Source of the DNA: a virus
Lineage: Duplodnaviria > Heunggongvirae > Uroviricota > Caudoviricetes
Direction: 5' to 3' (one strand)
Virus record (IMG/VR): IMGVR_UViG_2603880148_000004
DNA length: 37,740 nucleotides
Under the pieces are notes generated by a model. The model was not told where the DNA came from. It was given only the letters and a program-made list of their open reading frames with translations, and ran no database searches. The position numbers and the translations under genes are program-made. The stretch's first letter is position 1, and the number at the start of each line of letters is the position of its first letter. This document shows positions 5,739 to 37,740 of this stretch, piece after piece.

Positions 5739-6791
5739 ATGAAAAATACTGTGAAAATAAACAGTGCTGATTTAATCAACGCTGATTGCCTGCATTTTAT
5801 TCAGTCCCTGCCTGATGATTCCATTGACCTGATTGTTACCGATCCGCCGTACTTCAAGGTGAAACCCAACGGTTGGGACAATCAGTGGAAAGGGGACGAA
5901 GATTACCTGAAGTGGCTGGACCACTGTCTGGCTCAGTTCTGGCGGGGGCTGAAACCTGCCGGAAGCCTTTACCTGTTCTGTGGACATCGCCTCGCATCTG
6001 ATATCGAGATCATGATGCGTGAACGTTTCAACGTTCTTAACCATATTATCTGGGCGAAGCCGTCCGGACGATGGAACGGGTGTAATAAAGAAAGTCTGCG
6101 CGCATATTTTCCCGCAACAGAACGCGTTCTGTTTGCTGAACATTACCAGGGACCATATCGCGGCAAAAGTGACGGCTATGCGGCAAAAGAAAGTCAACTC
6201 AAACAGCACATAATGGCACCGCTGATTTCGTATTTCAGGGATGCTCGTGCCGAACTGGGTATAACGGCAAAACAGATTGCCGAAGCCACTGGTAAGAAAA
6301 ATATGGTTTCCCACTGGTTTGGTGCCAGTCAGTGGCAGTTGCCGAATGAGGCTGACTACCGGAAGTTGCAGGCACTGTTTTCCCGTATAGCGGCAGAGAA
6401 ATTTCAGGAACAACAACTGGAACAACCACACCACCAGCTGGTGGCATCTTATGATTCACTGAATCGCAAATATTCTGAATTGCTGGATGAGTTTAAAACT
6501 CTCCGGCGCTATTTCTCCGTATCAGTTTCCGTGCCTTATACCGACGTCTGGACGCATAAACCCGTTCAGTTCTACCCGGGTAAACATCCGTGTGAGAAGC
6601 CTGCGGATATGCTCCGGCAAATAATCAGTGCCAGTAGTCGACAAGGCGATCTGGTTGCTGATTTCTTTATGGGATCCGGTTCCACAATAAAAGCGGCAAT
6701 GGCGCTGGGGCGTCGGGCGTTAGGTGTTGAACTTGAGTCAGAGCGGTTTAATCAGACGGTGAAAGAGGTAAGTGAACTGGTGGGGAAATAA
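5739..6791 (+). CDS. Orphan DNA methyltransferase, beta class (N6-adenine or N4-cytosine), 350 aa
   Basis: DPPY motif (LIVTDPPYF) near the N-terminus and FxGxG SAM-binding motif (VADFFMGSGST) near the C-terminus; no adjacent restriction endonuclease gene. Confidence 0.85.
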   Translation: MKNTVKINSADLINADCLHFIQSLPDDSIDLIVTDPPYFKVKPNGWDNQWKGDEDYLKWLDHCLAQFWRGLKPAGSLYLFCGHRLASDIEIMMRERFNVLNHIIWAKPSGRWNGCNKESLRAYFPATERVLFAEHYQGPYRGKSDGYAAKESQLKQHIMAPLISYFRDARAELGITAKQIAEATGKKNMVSHWFGASQWQLPNEADYRKLQALFSRIAAEKFQEQQLEQPHHQLVASYDSLNRKYSELLDEFKTLRRYFSVSVSVPYTDVWTHKPVQFYPGKHPCEKPADMLRQIISASSRQGDLVADFFMGSGSTIKAAMALGRRALGVELESERFNQTVKEVSELVGK

Positions 6792-6867
6792 TTCTGGTGG
6801 CCACGTTGCGTGGCCTTTTTATTTCCAACACAGCACCCGCAAATATCGCGAGGTGAGAGATGACGAA

Positions 6868-7203
6868 ATGCCTCATAACCCAAATACCTGGCCGGACTGG
6901 CTGGAGTTGTTTCAGAGCTGGTGGCGTGGAGATACGCCGCTGGGCGCAGTGATTATGTCGATTGTTATGGCTGGGTTGCGCATCGCCTATTTTGGCGGTG
7001 GTGGTGGCTGGAAGCGAAAAACGCTCGAGATTTTGCTATGTGGCGCTCTGACGTTGACCTTTGCATCCGCGCTTGAGTATGTCGGATGGCCTAAATCGCT
7101 TTCTGTTGCCATTGGTGGTGGGGTGGGGCTGATCGGTGTCGATGCTATTCGTGGTGCGGCAATGAGGGTCATCGGTAACAAGTTCGGTGCCCATAAGGAG
7201 TAA
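6868..7203 (+). CDS. Putative holin, about 111 aa (start uncertain; ORF open from 6772)
   Basis: Directly precedes the R endolysin; hydrophobic segments (GAVIMSIVMAGLRIAYF, LEILLCGALTLTFASALEYVGW, AIGGGVGLIGV) and charged C-terminus; RBS gaggtgagag upstream of ATG 6868. Confidence 0.6.
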   Translation: MPHNPNTWPDWLELFQSWWRGDTPLGAVIMSIVMAGLRIAYFGGGGGWKRKTLEILLCGALTLTFASALEYVGWPKSLSVAIGGGVGLIGVDAIRGAAMRVIGNKFGAHKE

Positions 7204-7206
7204 TTA

Positions 7207-7683
7207 ATGCAGACACTTAATTCCCAGCGTAAAGCTTTCCTTGATATGGTGGCATGGTCAGAAGGAACAGATAACGGACGGCAGAAAACCAGAAATCACG
7301 GTTATGATGTTATTGTCGGTGGCGAACTGTTCACTGATTACTCCGATCACCCCCGCAAACTTGTCACGCTAAATCCGAAACTCAAATCAACAGCCGCTGG
7401 ACGTTACCAGCTTCTTTCACGCTGGTGGGATGCCTACCGCAAGCAACTTGGCCTGAAAGATTTTTCTCCAGAAAGTCAGGATGCTGTAGCGCTGCAGCAG
7501 ATTAAAGAGCGTGGCGCTTTGCCGATGATTGATCGCGGTGATATCCGTCAGGCTATCGACCGTTGCAGCAATATATGGGCTTCACTGCCGGGCGCTGGTT
7601 ATGGTCAGTTCGAGCATAAGGCTGACAGTCTGATTGCAAAATTCAAAGAAGCTGGCGGAACGGTCAGAGAGATTGAGGTATGA
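7207..7683 (+). CDS. R: Endolysin, lambda R-type lytic transglycosylase, 158 aa
   Basis: ...[47 protein letters not shown]... nearly identical to lambda R as I recall it. Confidence 0.92.
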
Positions 7684-8281: not shown

Positions 8282-9739
8282 ATGAATACATCTCATGTAA
8301 GAGTTGTTACTCATATGTGTGGGTTCCTGGTTTGGCTCTATAGTCTTTCAATGTTGCCACCAATGGTTGTAGCATTGTTTTATAAAGAAAAAAGCCTGTT
8401 CGTTTTCTTTATAACTTTCGTTATATTTTTTTGCATTGGTGGCGGAGCGTGGTATACAACTAAGAAATCTGGCATTCAATTACGTACCCGTGATGGGTTT
8501 ATTATAATTGTAATGTTTTGGATTTTGTTTTCTGTTATTAGTGCATTCCCTTTATGGATTGACTCAGAACTTAATTTAACGTTCATTGATGCTCTGTTTG
8601 AAGGGGTTTCTGGAATAACAACAACAGGAGCAACTGTAATTGATGATGTTAGTTCATTACCTCGGGCATATTTGTACTATCGGTCACAGTTAAATTTTAT
8701 AGGTGGTTTAGGAGTTATTGTTCTGGCGGTTGCTGTATTGCCATTATTGGGTATTGGTGGTGCAAAGCTTTATCAGTCAGAAATGCCGGGGCCATTTAAG
8801 GATGACAAACTCACTCCCCGCCTGGCCGATACGTCACGGACACTGTGGATAACTTATTCTTTATTAGGTATTGCTTGTATTGTCTGTTATAGACTTGCAG
8901 GAATGCCTTTGTTTGATGCTATTTGTCACGGGATTTCCACAGTTTCGCTTGGTGGTTTCTCAACTCATAGCGAGAGTATCGGATATTTTAATAACTATTT
9001 GGTTGAGCTGGTGGCTGGTTCTTTTTCCCTGCTATCGGCTTTCAACTTCACTCTTTGGTATATTGTTATTAGCAGGAAAACGATAAAACCTTTAATCAGA
9101 GATATTGAACTTCGTTTCTTTCTGTTAATAGCCTTAGGGGTGATCATTGTTACCTCTTTCCAGGTCTGGCATATAGGTATGTATGACTTGCATGGAAGTT
9201 TTATTCATTCGTTTTTTCTTGCCAGCTCCATGCTCACTGATAATGGTTTAGCTACGCAGGATTATGCAAGTTGGCCCACGCACACGATAGTGTTTTTGCT
9301 GTTGTCAAGTTTCTTTGGGGGATGTATAGGTTCAACTTGTGGTGGAATTAAGTCACTTCGATTTCTTATACTTTTCAAACAAAGCAAACACGAGATAAAT
9401 CAGCTTTCTCATCCCAGAGCGTTGTTGAGTGTAAATGTAGGAGGGAAGATAGTTACAGATCGTGTAATGAGGTCTGTATGGAGTTTCTTTTTTCTTTATA
9501 CTCTCTTCACGGTGTTTTTTATACTGGTGTTAAATGGTATGGGATATGATTTTCTTACATCATTTGCAACAGTGGCGGCATGTATTAATAATATGGGATT
9601 AGGTTTTGGGGCTACTGCATCGTCATTCGGAGTGCTTAATGACATTGCAAAATGTTTAATGTGCATAGCTATGATTCTTGGTCGCCTTGAAATTTATCCT
9701 GTTATTATATTGTTTTCAGGTTTTTTTTGGCGCTCCTAA
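8282..9739 (+). CDS. trkG: TrkG-type K+ uptake membrane protein (TrkH/TrkG family), 485 aa
   Basis: MNTSHVRVVTHMCGFLVWLYSL... multi-pass membrane protein matching Rac-prophage TrkG from memory; gene is AT-rich; alternative TTG start at 8264 with RBS aaggtgg. Confidence 0.88.
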   Translation: MNTSHVRVVTHMCGFLVWLYSLSMLPPMVVALFYKEKSLFVFFITFVIFFCIGGGAWYTTKKSGIQLRTRDGFIIIVMFWILFSVISAFPLWIDSELNLTFIDALFEGVSGITTTGATVIDDVSSLPRAYLYYRSQLNFIGGLGVIVLAVAVLPLLGIGGAKLYQSEMPGPFKDDKLTPRLADTSRTLWITYSLLGIACIVCYRLAGMPLFDAICHGISTVSLGGFSTHSESIGYFNNYLVELVAGSFSLLSAFNFTLWYIVISRKTIKPLIRDIELRFFLLIALGVIIVTSFQVWHIGMYDLHGSFIHSFFLASSMLTDNGLATQDYASWPTHTIVFLLLSSFFGGCIGSTCGGIKSLRFLILFKQSKHEINQLSHPRALLSVNVGGKIVTDRVMRSVWSFFFLYTLFTVFFILVLNGMGYDFLTSFATVAACINNMGLGFGATASSFGVLNDIAKCLMCIAMILGRLEIYPVIILFSGFFWRS

Positions 9740-9876: not shown

Positions 9877-10668
9877 ATGAGCGAGAAATTAAAGATAGTC
9901 TATCGCCCATTACAAGAATTGTCACCGTATGCGCACAACGCCAGGACGCACAGTACTGAGCAGGTGGCACAACTGGTAGAAAGTATTAAGCAATTCGGCT
10001 GGACTAATCCGGTGCTGATTGACGAAAAGGGCGAAATTATTGCGGGTCACGGTCGTGTTATGGCGGCTGAAATGCTCAAAATGGATTCTGTTCCGGTCAT
10101 TGTTCTGTCTGGCCTGACGGATGAGCAGAAAAAGGCGTACCGCCTGGCAGATAATCGCCTGCCGATGAATGCTGGCTGGGATGAAGATCTGTTGCGGATG
10201 GAGCTGTCGGACCTAATCAATGCTGATTTTGATGTCTCCCTGACAGGCTTCATCCCGACAGAAATTGATGAACTGTTGACGGATGTTTTGCCCGGTACAG
10301 GAAATGAGGAGGAGCCGTATACGACGAAAATTGATACGCCTGTTTATGAGCCGTCGGGCGGTAAACCGGATATCAGTGAACTGTACGACGATACGAAAAC
10401 TCAGGAGCTGATCAGCCGGATACGTTCGGCGTCCCTTGAGCCTGATATTGAGAAATTCCTCCTGTGTGCGGCAGAACGTCACACGGTGTTTAATTTCAGC
10501 AGAATTGCGGACTATTACGCTCACGCCCCCTCTGAAATTCAGTGTTTTTTCGAGGAGTCGGCGCTGGTGATCATTGATTATCAGCAGGCTATTGAAAATG
10601 GATTTGTCCGGATGACGCAGCGCATGGTGGAGATCATGCATGGTGGTGAGGAGGAGGAATATGCATGA
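9877..10668 (+). CDS. ParB-like nuclease domain protein (ParB/sulfiredoxin fold), 263 aa
   Basis: N-terminal motif LIDEKGEIIAGHGRVMAAEML resembles the ParB N-domain core; acidic C-terminal tail; K-12 Rac ynaK is a short relative at the same position. Confidence 0.7.
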   Translation: MSEKLKIVYRPLQELSPYAHNARTHSTEQVAQLVESIKQFGWTNPVLIDEKGEIIAGHGRVMAAEMLKMDSVPVIVLSGLTDEQKKAYRLADNRLPMNAGWDEDLLRMELSDLINADFDVSLTGFIPTEIDELLTDVLPGTGNEEEPYTTKIDTPVYEPSGGKPDISELYDDTKTQELISRIRSASLEPDIEKFLLCAAERHTVFNFSRIADYYAHAPSEIQCFFEESALVIIDYQQAIENGFVRMTQRMVEIMHGGEEEEYA

Positions 10669-21580: not shown

Positions 21581-22042
21581 ATGAGGTTATGGATGTTTAT
21601 TCTTAATCAGAAAATTATCATCGGTGGAGAACGCTGGTTTACGCCAATGAAGGACTTAAAACCTGTAGACGGGTTAAAACTGTTGGTGGCAAGCAGCGAT
21701 AACGATCAGTATCGCTCCCGTAATGCATTAATCCGTCGTCACATTGAGAAAATGGATGCCAGTTTGCACGTCGGAACGAAGGAGTTTGATATTTCAAAGG
21801 TTTCCGAGGTAGATTCTGTTGATGATTTACTCATTGATAATGCTGCTCGTTATCTGCTGAAAGACTGGAAAGGGGTTGGTGAACTGGTTAATGGTGCTGA
21901 GGTTGCACTGGAATATACGCCAGAACGAGGGATCGCGCTGCTTAAGCAGAATCCAGAGTTGTACTGGCAGATCCTTGCAGAAGCAGCCAGCATCGCCCAG
22001 GGTAAAGAGCAGCAGAAGCAGGATACGATAAAAAAGCCATAG
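21581..22042 (+). CDS. Tail assembly chaperone (lambda G-like), up to 153 aa; start uncertain (21581 or 21647)
   Basis: Position between major tail and tape measure; acidic; ends 2 codons after a slippery heptamer. Confidence 0.6.
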   Translation: MRLWMFILNQKIIIGGERWFTPMKDLKPVDGLKLLVASSDNDQYRSRNALIRRHIEKMDASLHVGTKEFDISKVSEVDSVDDLLIDNAARYLLKDWKGVGELVNGAEVALEYTPERGIALLKQNPELYWQILAEAASIAQGKEQQKQDTIKKP

Positions 22043-22350
22043 CCGCCCAGCGGTGGTTATCGGAGTTCGGGGGAGAAAGGGGGGAAAAGGCAAGATGGAA
22101 GCGAGAAAAACTCAGGTTGCCACCGATACCGGAACCAGAAATAGCCCCGGTGCTTAAGGAATTGTTGTACGCCTATTCGGTAATATCCCGTGCCCGACGT
22201 TATGCTGGAATGACCGGGGTGCCTTTGCCTTTATCTCTGACAGAGATAAATGAATATTTAGCCACTCATCCGGTATTGATTGAGCGCGATGAGTTTGAAG
22301 CAGTGATCTTTGCACTGGATGACCAGTATTTTCAGGAGCAGTGTGTGTAG
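21581..22350 (+). CDS. Tail assembly chaperone GT-like fusion produced by a programmed -1 frameshift at A-AAA-AAG (22030-22036)
   Basis: The -1 frame is open from 22006 to 22350 and overlaps the end of the G-like ORF; classical X-XXY-YYZ heptamer lies 2 codons before the G stop. Confidence 0.5.
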
Positions 22351-22513: not shown

Positions 22514-25500
22514 ATGGCAGAGCAAACCTCGCGTCTCGCAATAATTATTGATAGCACTGGAGCAAAAAATAATGCTGACAATCTGACCTCCTCATTAGTC
22601 AAAATGACGCAGGCCGGGGAAACTGCTGCAAATAGCGCAGGGAAAGTGACTAAGGCAACAGAAGATGAGAAGAACGCGCTCGCAAAATTAAAAGCAGCTA
22701 TTGATCCAGTTGGTGCCGCAATTGATACTGTCGGTCGACGCTATTCTGAATTAAAGAAATTTTTCGATAAAGGGCTTATTGATAAAGAAGAATATGAATT
22801 TCTTGTCCGTAAACTTAATGAAACCACAGAGGAATTGAGCGGGGTTGCGCAAGCGCAGAGAGAAGTCGAGAAGGCCGGAAAACTTGCTGCCGCCCAGCAG
22901 GAAGCGCAGGCTCAGGCCTTTCAAAGAATGCTGGACAAGATCGACCCTCTGGCTGCGGCGCTAAGAAATCTTGAACAACAGCATGATGAACTTAATGCTG
23001 CGTTTGCATCCGGGAAAATAAATGGTTCTCAGTTTGAGAATTATAGCCGAAAAATACAGGAAACACGGCGAGAGCTTACCGGAGAGGCTCAGGCAGAGCG
23101 AGAAGCAGCAAAAGCGCATGATGAACAGGTTGTTGCTTTGCAACGTCTGATTGCTCAACTTGATCCTGTCGGAACTGCTTTTAATCGTCTGGTAGAACAA
23201 CAGAAACAGCTCAATGAAGCAAAAGCCAAGGGGATGCTTTCTCCTGAAATGTATGAGGAGCTTTCTGGAAAACTTCGTGCTATGCGGAGTGAGCTTGAGG
23301 TTACTCAATCACAATTAAGCAAAACCGGAATGTCGGCAAAACAAACGGCTTTTGCTATGCGCATGTTGCCTGCACAAATGACGGATATTGTTGTTGGGTT
23401 GTCCACTGGTCAGTCGCCATTTATGGTGTTAATGCAGCAGGGCGGCCAGCTAAAAGATATGTTCGGTGGGATTGGCCCGGCGATCAAAGGTGTAGGTTCT
23501 TATGTGCTGGGATTAATTAATCCTTTTACCCTGGCCGCAGCAGCCGTTGGGGTCTTAGGACTGGCTTACTATAAAGGCTCTCAGGAGCAGGACGAATTTA
23601 ATAAATCTCTTATTCTTACCGGAAATTAGTTGGGGACAACCAGCGGGCAATTGGGCGATATAGCTCAACGTGCCGGGAATGCGGCTGATTCGACAACTGG
23701 TGCTGCGGCGGCAGTATTAAATCAGCTTGTGCGTTCGGGAAAGGTAGCGAGCAGTTCGCTGGAGCAAGTGACGACAGCGATAGTAAAAACGAGCGAAGTA
23801 ACAGGAATATCAACCGAACAACTGGTTAATGACTTCAATGAAATTGCAAAGGATCCTGTCAGTGCCATATCAAAACTTAATGATCAGTACCATTTTCTGA
23901 CACTTGCGACTTATAACCAGATTAAGGCGCTACAGGATGAAGGGAACCAGCAGGAGGCCGCCCGCATTGCGACAGAAGAATACTCATCCTCAATGATCCA
24001 GCGCACCAACCAGATTAAAGAAAATCTTGGTTATCTTGAGACTGCATGGAAAGCTGTCGCAGACTCCGCAAAATGGGCATGGGATTCCATGCTGGATATT
24101 GGCCGTGAGACCTCCCTTGATCAAAAAATCTCAGATGTTCTCCGTCAAATTGATGAAATAGAAAAAAATACCCGACCCGGAGTTTTCGGGTTAGGTGGCA
24201 TTGGAGATGGCGGAGCTCAAAATAAAAGGCTGGCACGATTAAAGCAGCAATTGGGCGTACTTCAAGCAGAAAAAATTGCTCAGGACGTACTAAATTCATC
24301 AATAAACGATTACAACAAGCGACAACAGGAAGGAATTGAACTCAGACAGAGAGCAGATGCCTTTTCAAAACAATATCAGACCCGGGAGCAGCAGAGAGCT
24401 AGTGAACTTGCAAAACTGGAAAAGCTAAAGAATCAGTATTCAAAGGAAGAATATAATAATCTTATCGCTCAAATAAATGAGCGTTATAAAGATCCAAAGC
24501 AACCAAAGGCGAAAGGTTATTCTGATGATGCAGCCCAACGAATGATTGATCATCTGAATCAACAGAATGCGTTACTAAGTTCACAAGCTGAGTTGACCGT
24601 TAAATTAAGTTCCTCTGAACAGGAACTGGTTAAGTGGCGTCAGCGGATTGCCGACCTAGAGTCACGACCATCATCGAAATTAACCCAGGATCAGAAATCG
24701 CTTCTCTTACACCGGGAAGAAATAACCGCGTTGATGGAGAAAAATGTTACGATTGAAAAGAATAACAGGCTAATCAAGGAATCCGCCGAAATAACAGCAT
24801 GGCGTGATTCATTGCAGGCTTCGATTGATAATCGTCAGCAGGGGTATGATATTCAGATTGCTGGTTATGGGGTTGGCGATAAAAATCAGCAACGCCAGCA
24901 GGAATTACTGCGGATTGAACATGGATATAACAATCAGCGTCTGCAACTTGAACGTGACTATGCAGATAAATCCCGTGGAATGTCAGATCATGTTTTTCAA
25001 GAGAAAATGCAGGCTCTGAATGATGCTCTGGAACGGGAAAAAGAAATTGTCAGACAGAAAAACGAGCAGCTCGATATTCAGGCAGGAGACTGGGTTAGTG
25101 ATGCCTCCCAGGGATTCAATAACTGGCTGGATGACACTAAGGATATCAGTGAGCAGATAAAATCAACCACGACTCAGATGTTTGATGGGATGACCGATGC
25201 GCTGGGTGATTTTGTCACGACAGGCAAGGCAAATTTTCGTTCTTTCGCTACTTCCGTGATTTCGGATCTTAGTCGAATAGCATTAAAGGCTTCAATTACT
25301 GGGATTTTCGACAGCATTAGTAACAGTTCTTCTGGGGGGATTTTAGGAACTATCGGGAGTGCTATTAGTAAATTTATTCCGAATGCAAAGGGCGGTGTTT
25401 ATGAGTCTCCGTCATTGAGCACGTATTCGAACGGTATTTATGATTCCCCGCAATTTTTTGCTTTTGCAAAAGGGGCTGGTGTTTTTGGTGAGGCTGGACC

Positions 25501-25747
25501 GGAAGCCATTATGCCATTAACACGAACTTCCGATGGTTCTCTTGGTGTCAGAGCTATTAATAGTAAAAGTGGTAATGGAGGCGGAGATATTACCTATGCC
25601 CCTGTATACCAAATCACTATTCAAAATGACGGCCAGAATGGAGAGATTGGCCCTCAGGCAATAAAAGCACTTATGGGGATGGTTGATCAGCGGGTGCAGG
25701 GCAATCTGTTAAATATGCGACGTGATGGGGGAATGTTAAGTGGCTAA
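22514..25747 (+). pseudogene. Tail tape measure protein gene interrupted by an in-frame TAG at 23627-23629 (371-aa and 705-aa segments in one frame)
   Basis: Both ORFs share a reading frame and are separated only by TAG; the second begins at TTG straight after the stop; coiled-coil-rich N-terminal part and Gly-rich C-terminal part; combined length about 1077 aa. Confidence 0.75.
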
Positions 25748-28154: not shown

Positions 28155-29894
28155 ATGGGTAAAGGAAGCAGTAAGGGGCATACCCCGCGCGAAGCGAAGG
28201 ACAACCTGAAGTCCACGCAGCTGCTGAGTGTGATCGATGCCATCAGCGAAGGGCCGGTTGAAGGTCCGGTGGATGGATTAAAAAGCGTGCTGCTGAACAG
28301 TACGCCGGTGCTGGACAGTGAGGGGAATACCAACATCTCCGGTGTCACGGTGGTGTTCCGGGCAGGTGAGCAGGAGCAGACACCGCCGGAGGGATTTGAA
28401 TCCTCCGGTTCCGAGACGGTGCTGGGTACGGAAGTGAAATACGACACGCCGATCACCCGGACCATCACGTCTGCAAACATCGACCGTCTGCGCTTTACCT
28501 TCGGTGTGCAGGCACTGGTGGAAACCACCTCAAAGGGTGACCGGAATCCGTCGGAAGTCCGCCTGCTGGTTCAGATACAACGTAACGGTGGCTGGGTGAC
28601 AGAAAAAGACATCACCATTAAGGGCAAAACCACGTCGCAGTATCTGGCCTCGGTGGTGGTGGATAACCTGCCGCCGCGACCGTTCAATATCCGGATGCGC
28701 AGGATGACACCGGACAGCACCACAGACCAGCTGCAGAACAAAACGCTCTGGTCGTCATACACCGAAATCATCGATGTGAAACAGTGCTACCCGAACACGG
28801 CACTGGTCGGCGTACAGGTGGATTCGGAGCAGTTCGGCAGCCAGCAGGTGAGCCGTAATTATCATCTGCGCGGGCGTATTCTGCAGGTGCCGTCGAACTA
28901 TAACCCGCAGACGCGGCAATACAGCGGTATCTGGGACGGAACGTTTAAGCCAGCATACAGCAATAACATGGCCTGGTGTCTGTGGGATATGCTGACCCAT
29001 CCACGCTACGGCATGGGGAAACGTCTTGGTGTGGCGGATGTGGATAAATGGGCGCTGTATGTCATCGGCCAGTACTGCGACCAGTCAGTGCCGGACGGTT
29101 TTGGCGGTACGGAGCCGCGCATCACCTGTAATGCGTACCTGACCACACAGCGCAAGGCGTGGGATGTGCTCAGTGATTTCTGCTCGGCGATGCGCTGTAT
29201 GCCGGTATGGAACGGGCAGACGCTGACGTTCGTGCAGGACCGACCGTCGGATAAGGTGTGGACCTATAACCGCAGTAATGTGGTGATGCCGGATGATGGC
29301 GCGCCGTTCCGCTACAGCTTTAGCGCCCTGAAAGACCGCCATAATGCCGTTGAGGTGAACTGGATTGACCCGAACAACGGCTGGGAGACGGCAACAGAGC
29401 TTGTGGAGGATACGCAGGCCATTGCCCGTTACGGTCGTAACGTCACGAAGATGGATGCTTTTGGCTGTACCAGCCGGGGGCAGGCACACCGCGCCGGGCT
29501 GTGGCTGATTAAAACAGAACTGCTGGAAACGCAGACCGTGGACTTCAGCGTGGGCGCAGAAGGGCTTCGCCATGTGCCGGGTGATGTCATTGAAATCTGT
29601 GATGATGACTATGCCGGTATCAGCATCGGCGGGCGCGTGCTGGCGGGAAACAGCCAGACCCGGACGCTGACGCTCGACCGTGAAATCACGCTGCCATCCT
29701 CCGGCACCAGGCTGATAAGCCTGGTTGACGGAAGTGGCAATCCGGTCAGCGTGGAGGTTCAGTCCGTCACCGACGGCGTGAAGGTGAAAGTTAGCCGTGT
29801 TCCTGACGGCGTTGCCGGATACAGCGTGTGGGGGCTGAAGCTGCCGACGCTGCGCCAGCGCCTGTTCCGCTGCGTGAGTATTATAACCAGGTGA
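28155..29894 (+). pseudogene. J: Host specificity / central tail fibre protein J (lambda J-like), truncated after 579 codons by the Mu-like insertion
   Basis: MGKGSSKGHTPREAKDNLKSTQLLSVIDAISEGP... matches the lambda J N-terminus; lambda J is about 1130 aa; homology stops near 29882 and the ORF ends in a short unrelated tail. Confidence 0.88.
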
Positions 29895-29896
29895 AT

Positions 29897-30055
29897 CATT
29901 TGATACCGACAAGGGTTTTAGTGAAAGGAGGTGAAATCACCTGTAAGATACTGAAATAAAACAGGTGATGGCTAGATGTGCGGATAAGGTCTATTTGATA
30001 CCGATTGTGCAATAATTAGTCATTTATTATAAAATCGGCAACTCATTTGATACTG
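29897..30055 (+). repeat. Three direct copies of ATTTGATAC(C/T)G, candidate transposase-binding sites of the Mu-like left end
   Basis: Copies at 29897-29909, 29993-30004 and 30044-30055, between the element terminus and the repressor gene. Confidence 0.45.
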
Positions 30056-30127
30056 TGGTTTTAGTCTTTTAAGGCGTTCCAAACAATGCGAAATACTCGA
30101 TATAGTGCAAAATGCGGGCTAATGCTA

Positions 30128-30673
30128 TTAACCCGCTTTTGGTTCTACCGCGTTAGATTTGCGACTTCTCTCAGTTTCTTCCAAAATCTCTCTGACGCGT
30201 TCGTCAGACATACCTTCAAGCTGTAATGCAGCTATTCTTTTCCTTCCTTCTAAGCGGATTAGATCTTGATTTTCAGGCTCTAACAACCGAGCTAAGTACT
30301 TGGCTCCATTCAGAACCAAATTTTTCGATAGCTGCTCTAAGTCTTTTTCATCAAGTGCGCTGATAATCGTCATAATTATCTTCTTGCTTTCATCTTGATT
30401 TTCCTTGATCTCACACCGATTCACTTGTGATGCATCACTGAATCCACATAGCCACTCAACACTTACTCCTTCGATAGACGCAATCTGAAGGGCGACACTT
30501 AAGGATGGCTCAGTGCCACGAGACAGATAATTGTTTAGTGTTGAAAATGAAAGCCCCCAATCTCTTGCTGCAGCTCTGACGCTGCGGGAGCCAATCAGCC
30601 TTTTCAGACGCTCAGCAATGCTTTCTTTTCTACCACCAGGAAAAGAAAGAGATGTTGTTGTTTGCTTGTTCAT
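30128..30673 (-). CDS. Transcriptional repressor with HTH (XRE-like), in the Mu c position, 181 aa
   Basis: Leftward-transcribed gene between the element end and ner; HTH-like segment GLSFSTLNNYLSRGTEPSLSVALQIASIEGVSVEWL; RBS aggaag. Confidence 0.65.
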   Translation of the reverse strand: MNKQTTTSLSFPGGRKESIAERLKRLIGSRSVRAAARDWGLSFSTLNNYLSRGTEPSLSVALQIASIEGVSVEWLCGFSDASQVNRCEIKENQDESKKIIMTIISALDEKDLEQLSKNLVLNGAKYLARLLEPENQDLIRLEGRKRIAALQLEGMSDERVREILEETERSRKSNAVEPKAG

Positions 30674-30857
30674 TTTCTTTTCTTCCTATCAATTTGAAAT
30701 TATTAACTTTTAGTGTTGTCAGCAACCATTGATCCACAATAGACAAAAGAAAGATGTTTTTTTGCTTTACATGAAGCAGAGGTGGATCAATACTTATATC
30801 AAACTTGATAACTAAGTTTAGTTATCAAATTTCGTAACTTTTTAGGATAGATGAATC
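30674..30857. promoter_or_regulatory. Divergent promoter/operator region between repressor and ner
   Basis: Inverted repeats TTGATCCAC / GTGGATCAA about 75 bp apart and the palindrome TTGATAACTAAgTTTAGTTATCAA; AT-rich. Confidence 0.5.
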
Positions 30858-31088
30858 ATGGCGAGAAATGAAGTTAAGCCTGATTGGCATCCTCAAAGAA
30901 TTTTGGGGGAAGTCAGAGCCAGAGAAGGAAGCATGAGGGCGCTGGCCCGTAAAGCTGGCGTGGGTCAGAACAATCTGTACAACGCGGTATACCGCCATGT
31001 TCCCAAGTATGAGGGGATTATCGCGGAATGCCTGGGGGTGCCGCCCGAGGAGATTTGGCCCAGCCGCTACATTCGTAAGGTCGCGTAA
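30858..31088 (+). CDS. ner: Ner-like DNA-binding protein, 76 aa
   Basis: ...DWHPQRILGEVRAREGSMRALARKAGVG...VPKYEGIIAECLGVPPEEIWPSRY resembles Mu Ner (DWH.., IWPSRY motifs); located before the transposase. Confidence 0.8.
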   Translation: MARNEVKPDWHPQRILGEVRAREGSMRALARKAGVGQNNLYNAVYRHVPKYEGIIAECLGVPPEEIWPSRYIRKVA

Positions 31089-31090
31089 TT

Positions 31091-33178
31091 ATGTTTGCTT
31101 CAGTCAAAGAACTGGTTGGATTACCGGGGATGCCGGGAACGGAGCAAGGCGTTCGCTATTCAATCAGGAAGTATGCAACCAGCGAAACCAGCAGACGCCG
31201 CAAGAAAGGCGCTAAAGGTTTTGAATACAGCATTGACTGTTTACCTGAAGTGACACAGCAGGCATTACGCGAACGTTATGCCCTGCAACTGATGACGCAA
31301 AAAGCCGATGAATCACCGGCTCCGGTGGTGACAAAGGCCAGACGCTCGTCTGCCGTGGTTGATGCGGTGGAGGCATATCGCGGATCACCACAACTGATGG
31401 TCGAACGCCTCAATGCCCTGACTGAAAACCAGCGCCAGGTGGCAGACGCACGCATTGCGATCGTCAGTGAGGTGCTGAAATTCACGCAACAACCCGGTTT
31501 CAGCTGCGCTAAAGCTATCCGGTTCATCGTTGACCGCCTGTCACACTCGCAACTGGATGAGCGCATTGTGGCAATGGTTGAGATAGCGAACGCCAGAAAG
31601 GGAAACAGTCGCGTGTTGAGTGAAATCACGCTGAAACGCTGGATTGCGGCCTTTAATAAGGCACAGAACGCTGCTGAACGCCTGCTTTTGCTGGCACCAG
31701 GTAAACGCCAGGAAATAAAAGCCGAAGATATTAACTGGTTGCCCGAATTTCTGGCGCAGTATCGCCAGTCAAACGGCCGACCAATGACCGAGGCTTACGA
31801 GGATTTTGTTGCCGAATGGCAGCACCGGCACGCTGATGAGCCTTATATGCTCGATATCATGCCGTCTTATGACACCATTCGCCGCGCAATGAAGAAACTG
31901 CCGGAAGTGGTGAAACAAAAAGGACGGGTTACCGGCAGTGAATACCGCCAGCTTGAGGGATTCACGCGCCGCGACTGGTCAAAAATGCCGGTGAATTATG
32001 TCTGGATTGGTGACGGTCACGGCATGAAGCTGAAATGCGCGCACCCGGTTCACGGGCGGCCATTCGCACCGGAAGTGACCTTTGTTATCGACGGTGGCAC
32101 GCGCTTTGTGGTGGGCTGGAGCCTTGACCTGGCTGAAAATGTTTTCGCCGTAGCCGGTGCCATACAGCACGGTATTCGCCATCATGGCAAACCGTTTCTG
32201 TATTACTCGGATAATGGCTCCGGGGAAACCGCCGACGTCCTGGATAAGGAGATTGTGGGGATACTGCCACGACTGGGGATTAATCACCCGACAGGGATTG
32301 CCGGTAATCCGCAGGGACGGGGCATTATCGAACGGCTTAACCGCACATTACCGATGCGCATAGCCCGTAAATACCGCACCTATTTCGGGAAAGGAGCAGA
32401 TCGCGAGACGTTACGTAAAACCAACCGCGATTTACGCTCGGCATTCAGTGCCCTGCAACAGGGCAAACGGCTGAACGCCCGGCAGCAGTCAGCGATGCGT
32501 GATTTACCGTCCTGGTCTGAACTGATTGATGCCATTCGTGACGGTGTTGAGTGGTACAACAACCGGCCGCACGATGAATTACCCATGAAGCCGAACGGTA
32601 AACATTACAGCCCGGCGGAGTTCAGAAAAAAACGCCTGGCGGAAGAGGACACGGAAATTGAATGGCTGTCCGATGTTGAACTGCGGGATATGTTCCGGCC
32701 GATGGTGGAGCGCCCTGTAAGACGCTGTGAAATACGCTGGCTGAATAATATTTACTACGCGCCCGAGCTGCGTGACGAGCATGGCCGTAAGGTACTTATC
32801 AGCTATGACATTCATGATGCCGAACGAATTACCGTGCGCCGCCCGGATGGCAGCGTGATTTGCGAGGCGGTATGGGACGGCAATAAACGCGAAGCCTTCC
32901 CTGTCAGCGCGGAATACTACAAACAGCAGCAGCGCCTTAAAGGCATGCGTAAACGCGCAGAGGAAAAAATCCGTGATGCCGAGGATGAGGTTGTCAACGT
33001 GCGGGAGCACAAGCCGCAGGAGCCCTGGCTGGAAAACATATACCGCCCTGTGGGTAATACGGTGACCGTTCAGCAACCGGTCGCTGACGATGAACCTGAT
33101 GAAGAATACGAGCGTAATTTCCAGCGGGGATTGCAACTGCTCGAAGCGAAATTAAAAGAAAGTGATCCGCTGGCCTGA
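31091..33178 (+). CDS. Mu-type DDE transposase (MuA-like), 695 aa
   Basis: Size and position after ner; N-terminal segment VKELVGLPGMPGTEQGVRYSIRK...KGAKGFEYSIDCLP resembles the MuA N-terminal DNA-binding domain; followed by the MuB-like ATPase. Confidence 0.85.
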   Translation: MFASVKELVGLPGMPGTEQGVRYSIRKYATSETSRRRKKGAKGFEYSIDCLPEVTQQALRERYALQLMTQKADESPAPVVTKARRSSAVVDAVEAYRGSPQLMVERLNALTENQRQVADARIAIVSEVLKFTQQPGFSCAKAIRFIVDRLSHSQLDERIVAMVEIANARKGNSRVLSEITLKRWIAAFNKAQNAAERLLLLAPGKRQEIKAEDINWLPEFLAQYRQSNGRPMTEAYEDFVAEWQHRHADEPYMLDIMPSYDTIRRAMKKLPEVVKQKGRVTGSEYRQLEGFTRRDWSKMPVNYVWIGDGHGMKLKCAHPVHGRPFAPEVTFVIDGGTRFVVGWSLDLAENVFAVAGAIQHGIRHHGKPFLYYSDNGSGETADVLDKEIVGILPRLGINHPTGIAGNPQGRGIIERLNRTLPMRIARKYRTYFGKGADRETLRKTNRDLRSAFSALQQGKRLNARQQSAMRDLPSWSELIDAIRDGVEWYNNRPHDELPMKPNGKHYSPAEFRKKRLAEEDTEIEWLSDVELRDMFRPMVERPVRRCEIRWLNNIYYAPELRDEHGRKVLISYDIHDAERITVRRPDGSVICEAVWDGNKREAFPVSAEYYKQQQRLKGMRKRAEEKIRDAEDEVVNVREHKPQEPWLENIYRPVGNTVTVQQPVADDEPDEEYERNFQRGLQLLEAKLKESDPLA

Positions 33179-33260
33179 AATAAAAAAATAACCCGAGGGG
33201 TGACTCAGGTTATTTGAGGTTTCAGTCTCGGAGAATGCTGTCTCAAGCGAGGTGAATAAT

Positions 33261-34193
33261 ATGACCGATATTAACGATGTAATCAAGACCATTGATGAAC
33301 TTATTGATGGCGGCGTACTGACGCAGTATGCCATCGCCAGAGAGGCGGGAATTTCCGACGGCACATTATCGGCTTTCCGTAAGGGAAAATATAAAGGCGA
33401 TAACGCTGCTGTGGCTGCTTCCCTGCGCTCCTGGTATGAGAACTGGAATAAACAAAGCGCACTGCCGGAACCGCCGCAGTTTGTGGAAACTCAGACAGTC
33501 CAGGAGCTGCGCGCACTGTTTCAGGCGGTTCGCCTGATGGGCTGTATTAACGTTATTGTGGGCGTACCGGGTGTGGGTAAAACGGCCACTGCCCGTAATT
33601 ACTGCCAGGAGCAACCAAACACCTGGATGATCACCCTGTCACCCGCGCACTCCAGCGTCACGGAGTGTCTGCTGGAGCTGGCCGATGCGCTGGGGATTGA
33701 TTACACCCGCGCGAACAAAGGGGCATTATCCCGCGCCATCCGCCGTCGCCTGATGGGAACGCGTGGACTGGTGATTGTGGATGAGGCGGATCATCTTGGT
33801 ATTGACGGTCTGGAGCAACTCCGGGCAATTCAGGACGCCACGGGGATCGGGATGGTGCTTATTGGTAACCCGCGCGGATTGTTTAAAGGTGGACGCCGCG
33901 CCTTTGGTGATTTATCGCGCCTGTTCAGCCGTCTTGCCCGTACAAAACAACTTCGCAAGGCCAAAAAGGCGGATGTGCTGGCCATTGCCATGGCGTGGGG
34001 GATCAGTGGTGAGGCCGAGCTGGCCGTCATGCAGGCTATCGCTGAAAAGCCGGGAGCGTTACGCGTTCTGACACATACGCTTAACCAGGCGTGGCTCACC
34101 GCCAGCGGTGAAGGCGCGGCGCTGACAGAAAAACATATTAATGCGGCCTTTAAAGAGGTTTATACCAACCCTGAATTACTCTCACAGGTGTGA
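33261..34193 (+). CDS. Transposition ATPase (MuB-like AAA+ protein), 310 aa
   Basis: Walker A GVPGVGKT and Walker B VIVDEADHL; N-terminal HTH; RBS gaggtga; immediately after the transposase. Confidence 0.85.
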   Translation: MTDINDVIKTIDELIDGGVLTQYAIAREAGISDGTLSAFRKGKYKGDNAAVAASLRSWYENWNKQSALPEPPQFVETQTVQELRALFQAVRLMGCINVIVGVPGVGKTATARNYCQEQPNTWMITLSPAHSSVTECLLELADALGIDYTRANKGALSRAIRRRLMGTRGLVIVDEADHLGIDGLEQLRAIQDATGIGMVLIGNPRGLFKGGRRAFGDLSRLFSRLARTKQLRKAKKADVLAIAMAWGISGEAELAVMQAIAEKPGALRVLTHTLNQAWLTASGEGAALTEKHINAAFKEVYTNPELLSQV

Positions 34194-34195
34194 TT

Positions 34196-34417
34196 ATGGC
34201 GGTATTTAATATTCCTGATATTTACGGACGCTTTTACCTGGTTAATTTCGATAACGTGAAGGTGATTTCACTGGCCGAAAATAAAGAATGTGGCGATTTA
34301 CTTTTTGAATTTAATGACCGCACACGAATGGTGATATCTGCCGGACTTGATCGCGAAGGTGCGACAGAAGTTTACAGCGGAATATGCCGTTCTGTTGGTG
34401 CGAAACAAGTCAGCTAA
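34196..34417 (+). CDS. Small early protein in the Mu kil position, 73 aa
   Basis: Position directly after the B-like gene; RBS aggtg; overlaps the B stop. Confidence 0.45.
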   Translation: MAVFNIPDIYGRFYLVNFDNVKVISLAENKECGDLLFEFNDRTRMVISAGLDREGATEVYSGICRSVGAKQVS

Positions 34418-34429
34418 ATGAGGTGTTAT

Positions 34430-34684
34430 ATGAATATGCAATCCTGCGGTAACAAAATGAATTTATTCGACTCCCTGAACAGCGCGCGCCGTCTGACCGA
34501 ACTTGCCGGTGCGGTACTGGAACGCAGTAAGCGCTATCCGCAACGTTTTGCACTGAAAACCACGCCGCCGGTAGGCAACGTGCAGGGAACCGGTGAAATT
34601 GAAATCACCATACAGACCAACGGCCTGCGCCGCCGTGTGAAGGCCACCCGCATCAGCGGCTGCACGGTTTACTGGGAGGTGTGA
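34430..34684 (+). CDS. Hypothetical Mu-like early protein, 84 aa
   Basis: ORF with RBS gaggtg 4 nt upstream of ATG 34430. Confidence 0.4.
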   Translation: MNMQSCGNKMNLFDSLNSARRLTELAGAVLERSKRYPQRFALKTTPPVGNVQGTGEIEITIQTNGLRRRVKATRISGCTVYWEV

Positions 34685-34685
34685 G

Positions 34686-34967
34686 GTGAAAAAAAATCTC
34701 ATTGCATGGGCGTGGTCGAGTGGTCTTATTGAGTTTGGTTACGTCCTGCCGGAAGGTGCATTGCCGATAGTTGCCGGAAAGCCTGCCACGGTACGGCATG
34801 TGATTGAGGTTATGGCGCGTCATGGACGTGATGAACAGGAGCAGTTACTGGTTCCGGGGATACCGGAAGCGGTGACGGAGGAAGAAGCCTTTAATGCCAT
34901 GATTCGGTTCTGCCGTGAGGTTAGACGCCGGGTCAGTTATCCAAACAGAACGAGGACCAGAGGATGA
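34686..34967 (+). CDS. Hypothetical Mu-like early protein, 93 aa
   Basis: GTG start with RBS gggaggtg; tightly packed operon. Confidence 0.45.
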   Translation: MKKNLIAWAWSSGLIEFGYVLPEGALPIVAGKPATVRHVIEVMARHGRDEQEQLLVPGIPEAVTEEEAFNAMIRFCREVRRRVSYPNRTRTRG

Positions 34968-35236
34968 GTAAAGTCGTACGCATTATTTTCGAATACAAGG
35001 AAGATGTTATCTGCAAAAACTCTGATGGCAGCACGCACAGAGGGGTAAGTCTGGATATACGTTCAACCGGAATAAAGAAGAAAGATAATGGACCCGCCAT
35101 GATTTTTGGGGTGGTTATGCTGGCAGAAAGCAGAAACTTCGCAGAGTTTGTGGCAATGAAAGCCAGTGCATTCATGAAAGACAGAGGCATGGCTTCCGGG
35201 GTTATTAACGGTAATGAATTTAATCAACAGGGGTAA
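34964..35236 (+). CDS. Hypothetical Mu-like early protein, 90 aa (paralog of the next gene)
   Basis: RBS gaggaccagagg; N-terminus MSKVVRIIFEYKED similar to the N-terminus of the following ORF. Confidence 0.45.
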   Translation: MSKVVRIIFEYKEDVICKNSDGSTHRGVSLDIRSTGIKKKDNGPAMIFGVVMLAESRNFAEFVAMKASAFMKDRGMASGVINGNEFNQQG

Positions 35237-35240
35237 TTCC

Positions 35241-35534
35241 ATGAGCAAAGTACGCGTTATTTTTGAATTTAATCATGTTTCGCATGACGAAAAGTTGGCA
35301 GGCAATGACTGTGTTGAAGTGCATGAAAAGATTGGAGTGGATGTGAAAACAGAACGTGATACGGATAACAGGCCGACGTCACTCTGTGACGTTTATGCAA
35401 GTATTCTCCAGTATCACAGTCCTGCAATTATTCAGTTTCTCTCAGCGGAATTTCAGGCATCTGCACAGTCTTTTGGAGCGGATGCCATCATTAAACGCCA
35501 CCGCGTGCATAAAGCATCAGGCACACTGCAATAA
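35241..35534 (+). CDS. Hypothetical Mu-like early protein, 97 aa (paralog of the previous gene)
   Basis: RBS acagggg; N-terminus MSKVRVIFEFNHV similar to the preceding ORF. Confidence 0.45.
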   Translation: MSKVRVIFEFNHVSHDEKLAGNDCVEVHEKIGVDVKTERDTDNRPTSLCDVYASILQYHSPAIIQFLSAEFQASAQSFGADAIIKRHRVHKASGTLQ

Positions 35535-35545
35535 GGAAAAACAAA

Positions 35546-36076
35546 ATGGCTAAACGCGTTACAAAATTAAAGGCCGCAGCCGAGGCGGCACCGCAGACCC
35601 GGGAAGAAGTCAGCCGTGATATCCGCACCCTGGGAGATATTCAGCGAGAGGCGCTGCGCCTGGAAACGGCGATGAATGACGAAGTGGCAGAAATCACCGC
35701 CCGTTATACGCCGCAGATTGAAAATCTTAAAAAGCAAATCAAAGTGCTTTTTAAAGGGATTCAGGACTGGTGCAAAACCAACCGTGATGAGCTGACGAAC
35801 GGCGGCAAAACCAAAACAGCCAATCTGACCACCGGAACGGTGTCATGGCGGCTGGGAACGCCATCATGCAGCGTCAGCCGTGATGTGGAAGGTGTGATTG
35901 AAATGCTGCGCCGTATGGGGCTTGAGCGTTTCATCCGCACGAAAGAGGAAGTGAACAAGGAAGCCGTCCTGGCGGAGCCGGATGCTGTGAAAGGCATTGC
36001 CGGTATCAAGGTGAATAAAGGCGCTGAAAGTTTTTATGTCGAGCCTTTTGAACAGGACGCCGGACTGAATAAATAA
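35546..36076 (+). CDS. gam: Gam-like host-nuclease inhibitor / DNA-end-binding protein, 176 aa
   Basis: Size and position as for Mu Gam; RBS aaggaaaa. Confidence 0.7.
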   Translation: MAKRVTKLKAAAEAAPQTREEVSRDIRTLGDIQREALRLETAMNDEVAEITARYTPQIENLKKQIKVLFKGIQDWCKTNRDELTNGGKTKTANLTTGTVSWRLGTPSCSVSRDVEGVIEMLRRMGLERFIRTKEEVNKEAVLAEPDAVKGIAGIKVNKGAESFYVEPFEQDAGLNK

Positions 36077-36221
36077 CACCACATTAATCAATTAAATATC
36101 ACTTCATTTTAATTATGGCGCTCGCGTCAGGGGACTGCTTGCGCCTGAAAACAGAAAATAAGGGTTAAGAAATATGAAATACGTTTATATCGTCATTAAT
36201 AATGTGGTGGGGAAATAAATC

Positions 36222-36755
36222 ATGATTGATGCAAAAGTGCTTGAAGGGGTTAAAAACTGGCTGTGTATTTATGGCCGCCTGACCTGCGGTGTACTGGCTG
36301 AAAAAATGAATATGCCGCCATCCTCCATGGTTTATTTTCTGCGTGATGCGGTTGATGCAGGCGTGCTGACGGAATGTAACGGTTTTTATGATATTCCGCG
36401 CCCCCGCCCGGTGCAGCCGGTTCGTCGCAAATGCAGCCAGGAATCTGCGGCTGATGATGTTCAGTGGTGCGGCTTCAGAAAATCCCTGCCATGGATTGAG
36501 GGGCATGATATTCCGTCGATGGCGTGGGAATTTGCTCAGGGCGTTCTGACCTGTGAAACCGTTTATGTGGTGGCTGAAGTTGATGAGCAGGCCATGAAAG
36601 AAGGCGTGCCCCAGTTTGTGATGGCGTATATCGACATACGCCTGGGCGTCATTATCTGCGGTTTAAGCGGCTGGAATATCACTGAACATGTTCTGCGCTA
36701 CCTGATTGTTGACCGGACAGCAGCGCCTGCCGGGATATCTGCGGAGGTGGCGTAA
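36222..36755 (+). CDS. Hypothetical Mu-like early protein, 177 aa
   Basis: ORF with RBS ggtgggga; position similar to Mu GemA-type genes (position only). Confidence 0.5.
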   Translation: MIDAKVLEGVKNWLCIYGRLTCGVLAEKMNMPPSSMVYFLRDAVDAGVLTECNGFYDIPRPRPVQPVRRKCSQESAADDVQWCGFRKSLPWIEGHDIPSMAWEFAQGVLTCETVYVVAEVDEQAMKEGVPQFVMAYIDIRLGVIICGLSGWNITEHVLRYLIVDRTAAPAGISAEVA

Positions 36756-37270
36756 TGTTCTTTAAAACATCAAACCCTTCCGCGCTGGCTGCGTGGCAAA
36801 AATACCAGCAGGACTGCCAGAAAGTTAAGGATGAGGCAAAACGCCTTGAGGCCGTGCTGAATGTTGCGTGCCGGTCGGTATTTGTATCCGGTATCAGTGG
36901 ATTTTACTTTAAGGGACTGCGTTTTACGGAGGACAAATATCCTTTTCATCGCGACTTATGGCGAAAACCGACTGCGTCGAATGGCTGGAGCTGCACACCG
37001 CGCACATCACGTATCCCTAAAACCCTGCGTGTTGCCTCTGATGAACTGAACAGTCTGTGGCGTGAATATTCGCCCGTCACGTATGCCAGAACCGATGCGC
37101 TGTTGTTCTGGTTGGGTATTGATTTCTCGGCAATCCTGTTTGGCCCTGTGAAGTGGTTCTGCGTTGACGATGTGATTTACCTTCAGTGCGGCGTAAAACC
37201 CGCAAAACAGAAAATGACCGAAATACTGTCTGATGAGTTTTATGCTGCTGAAAAGCGAGTCAGGGGGTGA
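36755..37270 (+). CDS. Hypothetical Mu-like early protein, 171 aa
   Basis: ORF with RBS ggaggtgg; start overlaps preceding stop. Confidence 0.5.
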   Translation: MFFKTSNPSALAAWQKYQQDCQKVKDEAKRLEAVLNVACRSVFVSGISGFYFKGLRFTEDKYPFHRDLWRKPTASNGWSCTPRTSRIPKTLRVASDELNSLWREYSPVTYARTDALLFWLGIDFSAILFGPVKWFCVDDVIYLQCGVKPAKQKMTEILSDEFYAAEKRVRG

Positions 37271-37273
37271 TGC

Positions 37274-37471
37274 ATGATGAAATTACAACCCATGGGACTA
37301 AAAGGTCGCGCCCCCGCTCATGTCCGTCCGTGGACACCTGAAGAAGATGCGCTGCTGATTGCGCTTTATTCATCCACCCCGGTTAAGGATATTGCTGCCA
37401 GAATAAAAAGAACTGTCTGGGCTGTATATAACCGGACTGGTGTATTGCGCAGTTCATACCCGGAGTTACTG
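37274..37471 (+). pseudogene. Mu-like early gene truncated by IS1 insertion (first about 66 codons intact)
   Basis: ORF MMKLQPMGLKGRAPAHVRPWTPEEDALLIALY... runs into the IS1 terminus at 37472; its last about 26 codons are read from IS1 sequence. Confidence 0.4.
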
Positions 37472-37740
37472 GGTAGTGACTCCAACTTACTGATAGTGTT
37501 TTATGTTCAGATAATGCCCGATGACCTTGTCATGCAGCTCCACCGATTTTGAGAACGACAGCGACTTCCGTCCCAGCCTTGCCAGATGTTGTCTCAGATT
37601 CAGATTATGTCGCTCAATGCGCTGAGTGTAACGCTTGCTGATAACGTGCAGCTTTCCCTTCAGGCGTGATTCATACAGCGGCCAGCCATCCGTCATCCAT
37701 ACCACGACCTCAAAGGCCGACAGCAGGCTCAGAAGACGCT
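37472..37740 (-). mobile_element. Partial IS1, inverted relative to the copy at 1-267, cut by the window edge
   Basis: ggtagtgactccaacttactgatagtgttttatgttcag... is the reverse complement of the IS1 end at 240-267; encodes an identical InsB C-terminus on the minus strand. Confidence 0.85.
37487..37740 (-). CDS. insB: IS1 transposase InsB, C-terminal fragment (N-terminus outside the window)
   Basis: Minus-strand translation identical to the InsB fragment at 1-252. Confidence 0.85.

Follow-up and report, generated by a model that had tools for sequence, protein, structure and literature searches.

A natural amber codon in the tape-measure gene of a defective Escherichia coli prophage

The tape-measure gene and the surrounding tail module

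The window, that is, the whole 37,740-nucleotide stretch of DNA that was analysed, holds part of an E. coli prophage and ends in IS1 sequence at both contig edges. The tape-measure gene and the chaperone genes upstream of it comprise the following features.

21581-22350, plus strand: tail assembly chaperone pair, a YdaY/gpG-like ORF with a -1 frame extension (gpGT-like), apparently intact; recognised by its slippery site and PF27119 (Phage_YdaY).
22514-25747, plus strand: tape-measure gene of 1077 codons with one internal stop, a pseudogene; identified by translation, intact orthologues, Pfam/NCBIfam profiles, PDB 8iyk_H and the PGAP flag on its counterpart in strain 600029.
22514-23626, plus strand: 371-aa N-terminal fragment, the sole part expected to be translated, with a coiled-coil region, hydrophobic segments and the first half of TMP_2 (translation, Pfam).
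23627-23629, plus strand: amber codon TAG, derived from CAG (Gln372); from the alignment of relatives and allele counts.
23630-25747, plus strand: remainder predicted to be untranslated, codons 373-1077, with the second half of TMP_2, TMP_4, the lambda-type C-terminal domain and a C-terminal tail-tip helix, and the changes A746T and G863D (Pfam, gpH alignment).

The internal stop lies in the codon context ...ACC GGA AAT TAG TTG GGG... on the plus strand. It parts two open reading frames that share one frame, 22514-23629 (371 aa, beginning with ATG) and 23630-25747 (705 aa, beginning with TTG), and translation of 22514-25747 gives 1078 codons, in which the stops are codon 372 and the terminal one. 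An earlier, sequence-only reading of this DNA had described just this arrangement, and the sequence, the ORF list and the translation agree with it exactly. That reading also held that the two ORFs together make one tape-measure protein of roughly 1077 aa, broken by one nonsense change. Both points are borne out by relatives, in which the gene is a single unbroken stretch of 3234 bases (1077 codons) annotated as phage tail tape-measure protein; DNA identity is 99.8% to E. coli MB22 and PSS-16, and 99.6% to Salmonella phage SPF_0923. In the alignment with these relatives the ancestral codon 372 is CAG, and the amber codon is a single C>T transition at 23627.

Profile searches were run on the intact MB22 orthologue; the two ORFs of the window hold the same domains in pieces. 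In brief, Pfam detects TMP_2 (residues 267-471, 273.6 bits, cut-off 30.2), TMP_4 (residues 671-748, 85.9 bits, cut-off 27) and Tape_meas_lam_C (residues 858-932, 91.4 bits, cut-off 23), and NCBIfam detects TIGR01541 (218.7 bits, cut-off 104.75). The stop divides TMP_2, leaving profile positions 2-109 in the upstream ORF (residues 267-371) and 112-208 in the downstream one. Since one domain is cut in two, the two ORFs are not natural separate genes. The TTG at which the 705-aa ORF begins encodes Leu373 in the intact protein; to a mechanical ORF rule it is the earliest start codon available after the stop. We did not find a Shine-Dalgarno-like sequence upstream of this TTG, where the stretch reads CTTACCGGAAATTAG. 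In the 371-aa fragment, a coiled coil is combined with hydrophobic, membrane-seeking segments.

Residues 267-1077 align to residues 54-850 of lambda gpH (PDB 8iyk_H; E=1.2e-70), and the two proteins have TMP_2 and Tape_meas_lam_C/TIGR01541 in common (PDB 8IYK/8IYL/8K35 chain H). Q372 lies opposite a Gln in gpH, within a motif found in both, L(I/V)L(T/S)GNQ(L/A)G(T/L)T, and the C-terminal 30 residues (1048-1077), about 680 codons past the stop, align to gpH with high confidence. The protein encoded in the window is longer than gpH, 1077 against 853 aa, and its residues 1-266, a coiled-coil-like region, have no gpH alignment. By homology, then, the gene encodes a tail tape-measure protein of the lambda gpH type. 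Deletion work by Katsura is said to have shown that the tape measure acts as a continuous ruler. The lambda tail tube is filled by a trimer of gpH that sets the tail length, and the C-terminal helix of gpH, residues 818-842, lies in the lumen of the tail tip, where it is held by gpI (PMC10721106).

The tape-measure gene has the frameshifted chaperone pair (G/GT) on its upstream side and the tail-tip genes (M, L, K, I and J) on its downstream side. The chaperone pair has a slippery heptamer, A_AAA_AAG, at 22030-22036, and the -1 frame is open to 22350. Downstream of the tape-measure gene are genes for Phage_min_tail, Phage_tail_L, an NlpC/P60 and JAB protein, Lambda_tail_I and J. The gene order is thus shared with lambda: tube, G/GT chaperones with a slippery site, tape measure, and then homologues of M, L, K, I and J. 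We suggest that the upstream chaperone pair and the tape-measure gene correspond to the G/GT-H arrangement of lambda. The structural module of strain 600029 carries annotation flags on the tape-measure gene and a partial ynaK only, and the remainder looks intact. Since the rest of the module looks intact, the amber codon appears to be a recent lesion and not part of a wholesale erosion of the late genes.

Distribution and origin of the amber allele

The allele was searched for with a probe of 31 bases centred on the site, so that any 28-base megablast word must span the variant base. Among 5426 complete E. coli genomes the TAG allele was found in one, strain 600029, and the CAG allele in 703; TAG thus accounts for one of the 704 complete genomes that have the site. 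IMG/VR contigs gave a similar picture, with TAG in one of 66 and CAG in the other 65. CAG was also present in 69 fetched loci, and TAG is an in-frame stop confined to one lineage at a position where orthologues keep a sense codon. No match to the TAG allele was found in JGI metagenome contigs; ENA metagenome assemblies do hold it, so this null result is uninformative. The exact 371-aa product was found in 75 assembly-index blocks and in at least ten independent assemblies, among them two ENA metagenome assemblies and a Logan run. Persistence of the allele in many isolates would fit a retained function, and it also fits hitch-hiking in a successful clone.

Strain 600029 (NZ_CM128582.1), isolated from human stool in Bangladesh, is the sole carrier among complete genomes. 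Its tape-measure gene has the same amber allele as the window and differs from it by one synonymous change, at nucleotide 714. RefSeq PGAP gives this gene, ACU5SP_RS20470, the product name "phage tail tape measure protein" and flags it as a pseudogene, with the remark "internal stop". The amber allele is therefore already known as a pseudogene in RefSeq, in this sister strain.

All 14 TAG sequences compared also carry A746T and G863D, which occur in none of 56-59 CAG alleles, so that the haplotype reads Q372*, A746T, G863D. The sharing of these two private changes by all 14 indicates that the amber lineage had one origin and was inherited vertically. The second of them, G863D, hits a glycine that is also present in lambda gpH. 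Private changes downstream of the stop in the amber lineage number five non-synonymous and no synonymous, against 93 and 127 in intact alleles (one-sided Fisher p=0.015), a weak comparison of small counts in which the events are not phylogenetically independent. The pattern would fit relaxed constraint on a downstream part that is no longer translated. Two of the five lie in adjacent codons, 549 and 550, and are confined to one or two of the 14 sequences.

Other lesions in the prophage

Downstream of the tape-measure gene and at the contig edges, the window holds the following interrupted gene and mobile elements.

28155-29881, plus strand: 5' part of the tail-tip gene J, the first 575 complete codons of 1165, broken by an insertion; other amber carriers run on into J past 29881.
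29882-37471, plus strand: left 7.6 kb of a Mu-like transposable prophage inside J, with a repressor gene (30128-30673, minus strand), a Ner-like gene, transposase A (31091-33178), B ATPase (33252-34193), Gam and others; matches start at 29882, and Pfam profiles match.
1-268, no strand assigned: IS1 end at the left contig edge (sequence matches).
37472-37740, no strand assigned: IS1 end at the right contig edge, directly adjoining the Mu-like sequence; an IS1 terminus lies at 37472, and the Mu-like copy in 600029 runs on unbroken.

The Mu-like sequence is matched by the Pfam profiles HTH_Tnp_Mu_1, Mu-transpos_C, Phage-MuB_C and HTH_35, and the annotations of matching sequences in other genomes agree with this. 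Its right end lies outside the window, as the contig closes in IS1. Among the matches listed, those to the Mu-like copy alone, which come from many genomes, all start at window position 29882. Strain 600029 differs from the window in that its J is intact and its Mu-like prophage lies elsewhere, in an SgrR-family gene. There the element terminus, TATAACCAGG..., is joined to the SgrR-family gene, with flanking sequence that is different right up to the last base; the sequence TATAACCAGGTGAATCATTTGATACCG... follows J (past 29881) in the window and the SgrR-family gene in 600029. Since the J sequence breaks off exactly at the Mu-like terminus seen in other genomes, the break is the true end of the element, and a real Mu-like transposition is far more likely to account for the junction at 29881/29882 than a misjoin.

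Truncation of J by a deletion or by a contig misjoin was considered and rejected: the break falls exactly at the Mu-like terminus, and in two other contigs with the amber allele (L010 and L011) the J sequence continues for about 70 bases past the break point, after which the contigs end. An intact J of 1165 aa is present in the amber carriers 600029, L007 and L008. Since amber carriers with an intact J exist, the insertion is later than the amber codon, and it is private to the strain of the window. The sequence-only reading had taken a truncated J as a sign of a decaying prophage. The prophage is indeed decaying, but J has not been deleted; it is interrupted by the left end of a Mu-like element.

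The prophage of strain 600029 occupies the lambda attachment site, flanked by ybhC and ybhB, and its left IS1 is immediately adjacent to int-xis. Where 600029 has this IS1, strain 6EVA has about 12 kb with exo, bet, gam, kil, a repressor gene, a cro-like gene, O, P and ren. With IS1 in place of these early genes, the prophage of the amber lineage has no immunity, replication or recombination module in those carriers where the region is visible. This replacement, absent from the sequence-only reading, is stronger evidence of decay than the lesion in J.

Carrier L008 has a further IS1 in a tail gene. PSS-16, the closest relative with CAG, has IS1 and IS3 lesions of its own that differ from these, and in the vB_EcoS-885R8 group the tape-measure protein is cut by another nonsense codon of independent origin, at position 833, with no indels. 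Related prophages are thus decaying by other, independent routes.

The genes trkG, ynaK and ydaY near the tape-measure gene are named after genes of the Rac prophage, so that the late genes belong to the same prophage lineage. In Rac, a cryptic prophage of E. coli K-12, the tape-measure remnant (ydaY-tmpR region) is a pseudogene and most structural genes are deleted. Both prophages are thus defective and have a tape-measure pseudogene, but the gene in the window keeps its full length, with a point mutation as its single defect, and the whole head-tail module is still present, unlike in K-12 Rac. The location also differs, the window prophage being at the lambda attachment site (ybhC/ybhB) and Rac not. 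The left arm, with ybcN, ninE, rusA, quuD and a porin gene, resembles that of DLP12. The prophage is a lambdoid mosaic, its left arm being like that of DLP12 and its late region like that of Rac.

Interpretation of the amber allele

We consider it very probable that the amber codon is a loss-of-function nonsense allele, in which Gln372 (CAG) of a 1077-aa gpH-type tape-measure protein has become TAG, and that the gene is an ordinary pseudogene of a defective E. coli prophage. The C>T change at 23627 would end translation after 371 residues, in the middle of TMP_2, and the product would lack 65% of the full length, with both the lambda-type C-terminal domain and the tail-tip helix among the lost parts. 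We infer that no full-length protein is made from the amber allele, and by analogy with lambda no tail of defined length would then be built. The laboratory amber mutants of lambda H (Ham) are tail-defective, and because of this likeness tail assembly would be expected to fail with the amber allele too. The mutation in the window is a natural one residing in a prophage, whereas those in lambda were selected as conditional-lethal mutants and grown on a suppressor host.

A sequencing or assembly artefact is one alternative to a mutation. The window is the whole of a draft contig assembled from short reads, JNLZ01000052.1 (GCA_000700125.1), and a single-base difference is the commonest type of error. 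The same T and the exact 371-aa product are found, against this, in at least ten other assemblies from different projects, including the complete chromosome of 600029, the two metagenomes and the Logan run, and all carriers share one haplotype, in which two private missense changes are linked to the T. An artefact at 23627 is thus extremely unlikely, and we rejected sequencing error on the basis of these many independent assemblies; the sequence-only reading had named a sense codon on resequencing as able to overturn its TAG, and these assemblies have the T.

The same reading had allowed that two separate proteins might be normal in relatives. In such a functional split gene, translation would restart at the TTG and give 371-aa and 705-aa proteins that act together, or two genes would be the normal arrangement in the phage group. 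Gene callers annotate both ORFs, and some records of related phages list two tape-measure CDS. The records in question, of the vB_EcoS-885R8 type with an "x2" annotation, are split elsewhere, by the independent nonsense codon at position 833, and two tape-measure genes as the norm were rejected as a candidate on that account. At codon 372, a single ORF spans the site in 703 of 704 complete genomes. The break falls within one conserved domain, TMP_2, a ribosome-binding sequence of the Shine-Dalgarno type is not seen before the TTG, and the tape measure is a continuous ruler that reaches from the tail tip to the top of the tail (PMC10721106). All of this makes a functional split gene extremely unlikely.

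Suppression or readthrough of the amber codon, by a suppressor tRNA of the host or of a mobile element or by natural near-cognate decoding, would yield the full-length protein and leave the gene functional, perhaps conditionally. It is in keeping with this that the late gene module of 600029, including the G/GT frameshift site, is otherwise intact and that the allele persists in many isolates. We did not find a tRNA gene in the window. In 600029 the glnX-glnV cluster, located by synteny, has two tRNA-Gln(CUG) genes that both keep the wild-type anticodon CTG, and a supF-type tRNA-Tyr was not found in this strain; the look-up covered Gln- and Tyr-type tRNAs in strain 600029 alone, a scope that leaves a little room for suppression by other tRNAs. 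The supF-type probe matched one laboratory strain only. A supE-type 31-mer probe was positive in its controls (C600, DH5alpha, DH1 and other K-12 derivatives), and among the 60 of 156 matches listed nearly all were K-12 laboratory strains or their derivatives, which speaks against natural suppression of this kind.

The context of a stop codon reportedly affects its suppression, a following T being poor according to work by Bossi in 1983 and by Poole et al. in 1995, and the stop at codon 372 is followed by T. Programmed readthrough or recoding would have a stop codon that is conserved in relatives, and this one is not (TAG against CAG is 1 vs 703 in complete genomes and 1 vs 65 in IMG/VR contigs). 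The changes downstream of the stop in the amber lineage, all non-synonymous and one of them at the gpH-conserved glycine, do not suggest continued selection, bearing in mind that they are five non-independent changes. In a prophage without its early region, moreover, a working tail gene would serve no phage life cycle. Suppression or readthrough is for these reasons very unlikely. It is highly improbable that the allele is kept and not merely tolerated, be it that the host has co-opted the 371-aa fragment, for example to block DNA injection by lambdoid phages, or that a natural suppressor tRNA makes tails conditional.

The loss-of-function reading thus makes the allele a natural equivalent of a lambda H amber mutation, and nothing suggests recoding, a functional split gene or a new mechanism. 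The amber codon had a single origin, in a prophage located at the lambda attachment site, and was then passed down one E. coli lineage in which later lesions followed. This makes a small stepwise series of prophage decay, with the amber codon first, followed by the Mu-like phage in J in the strain of the window and, in a second strain, by an IS1 within a tail gene. For annotation, the two ORFs should be merged into a single tape-measure pseudogene and the prophage scored as defective. The allele raises no new question on tape-measure proteins or translation and matters little beyond annotation. Combined with A746T and G863D, the T at 23627 can conveniently serve to mark a single clonal lineage of E. 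coli.

Nonsense codons and insertions in relatives

The tape-measure gene has been hit more than once. In locus L003 (ON470602.1), a relative, codon 833 of this gene is a stop, as it is in ON470581, ON470585, ON470587 and ON470595, and this nonsense change arose independently of the amber codon of the window. These records are partial genomes named 'Escherichia phage vB_EcoS-...', and their annotation shows two tape-measure CDS.

In locus L008 (GCA_977066965.1), which carries the amber codon, an IS1 element interrupts a gene of the tail module (126 aa) that lies upstream of the tail terminator (L008 locus 6485-7640, corresponding to approximately 20040 of the window). This IS1 is a second, independent and later lesion within the amber lineage. 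The ynaK-like ParB/Srx gene (9877-10134) is annotated by PGAP as a partial pseudogene with the C-terminus missing, both in strain 600029, the complete-genome carrier of the amber codon, and in strain PSS-16. Since the TMP of PSS-16 is intact, the ynaK-like lesion extends beyond the amber lineage.

Mu-like element and IS1 termini

The gene J is broken by a Mu-like transposable prophage, whose exact left end lies at 29881/29882.

29882-37471, Mu-like element encoding a repressor, a Ner-like protein, A, B and Gam
1-268 and 37472-37740, IS1 termini, one at each contig end and mutually inverted

The Mu-like element starts with TATAACC, whereas phage Mu starts with TG. The sequence CATTTGATACC/T is repeated close to its terminus, and these repeats resemble transposase-binding sites. 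Strain 600029 has a copy of the element with 99.5% identity, located within a gene encoding an SgrR-family regulator. Where the Mu-like sequence of the window adjoins the right IS1, the copy in strain 600029 runs on into a SANT/Myb-like gene. Thus, either IS1 inserted into the Mu-like copy as well, or the segments were joined through an IS1-mediated rearrangement. The left IS1 marks the loss of approximately 12 kbp of early genes.

Cargo genes and mosaic composition

The late region of the prophage harbors three cargo genes, of which trkG is flanked by lysis and terminase genes.

3738-4820, minus strand, OmpC/NmpC-like porin
5739-6791, plus strand, DNA methyltransferase
8282-9739, plus strand, trkG, potassium transporter

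The prophage is a mosaic, with ybcN, ninE, rusA, quuD and the porin gene forming a DLP12-like part, and trkG, ynaK and ydaY a Rac-like part.

Tail chaperones and the N-terminal region of the TMP

The tail assembly chaperone pair (21581-22350) has the canonical -1 frameshift arrangement, with a slippery site at 22030-22036. The YdaY-like ORF ends in ATA AAA AAG CCA TAG, beyond which approximately 100 further codons are open in the -1 frame. In the PGAP annotation each part is a gene of its own, one named 'protein YdaY' and the other 'hypothetical protein'.

Residues 59-237 of the TMP (approximate; window positions around 22680-23230) comprise three similar segments, each around an (I/L)DP(V/L)(G/A) motif and spaced approximately 70-80 residues apart. 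These may be the product of an internal triplication, which would make the ruler longer. The N-terminal region containing them does not align to lambda gpH.
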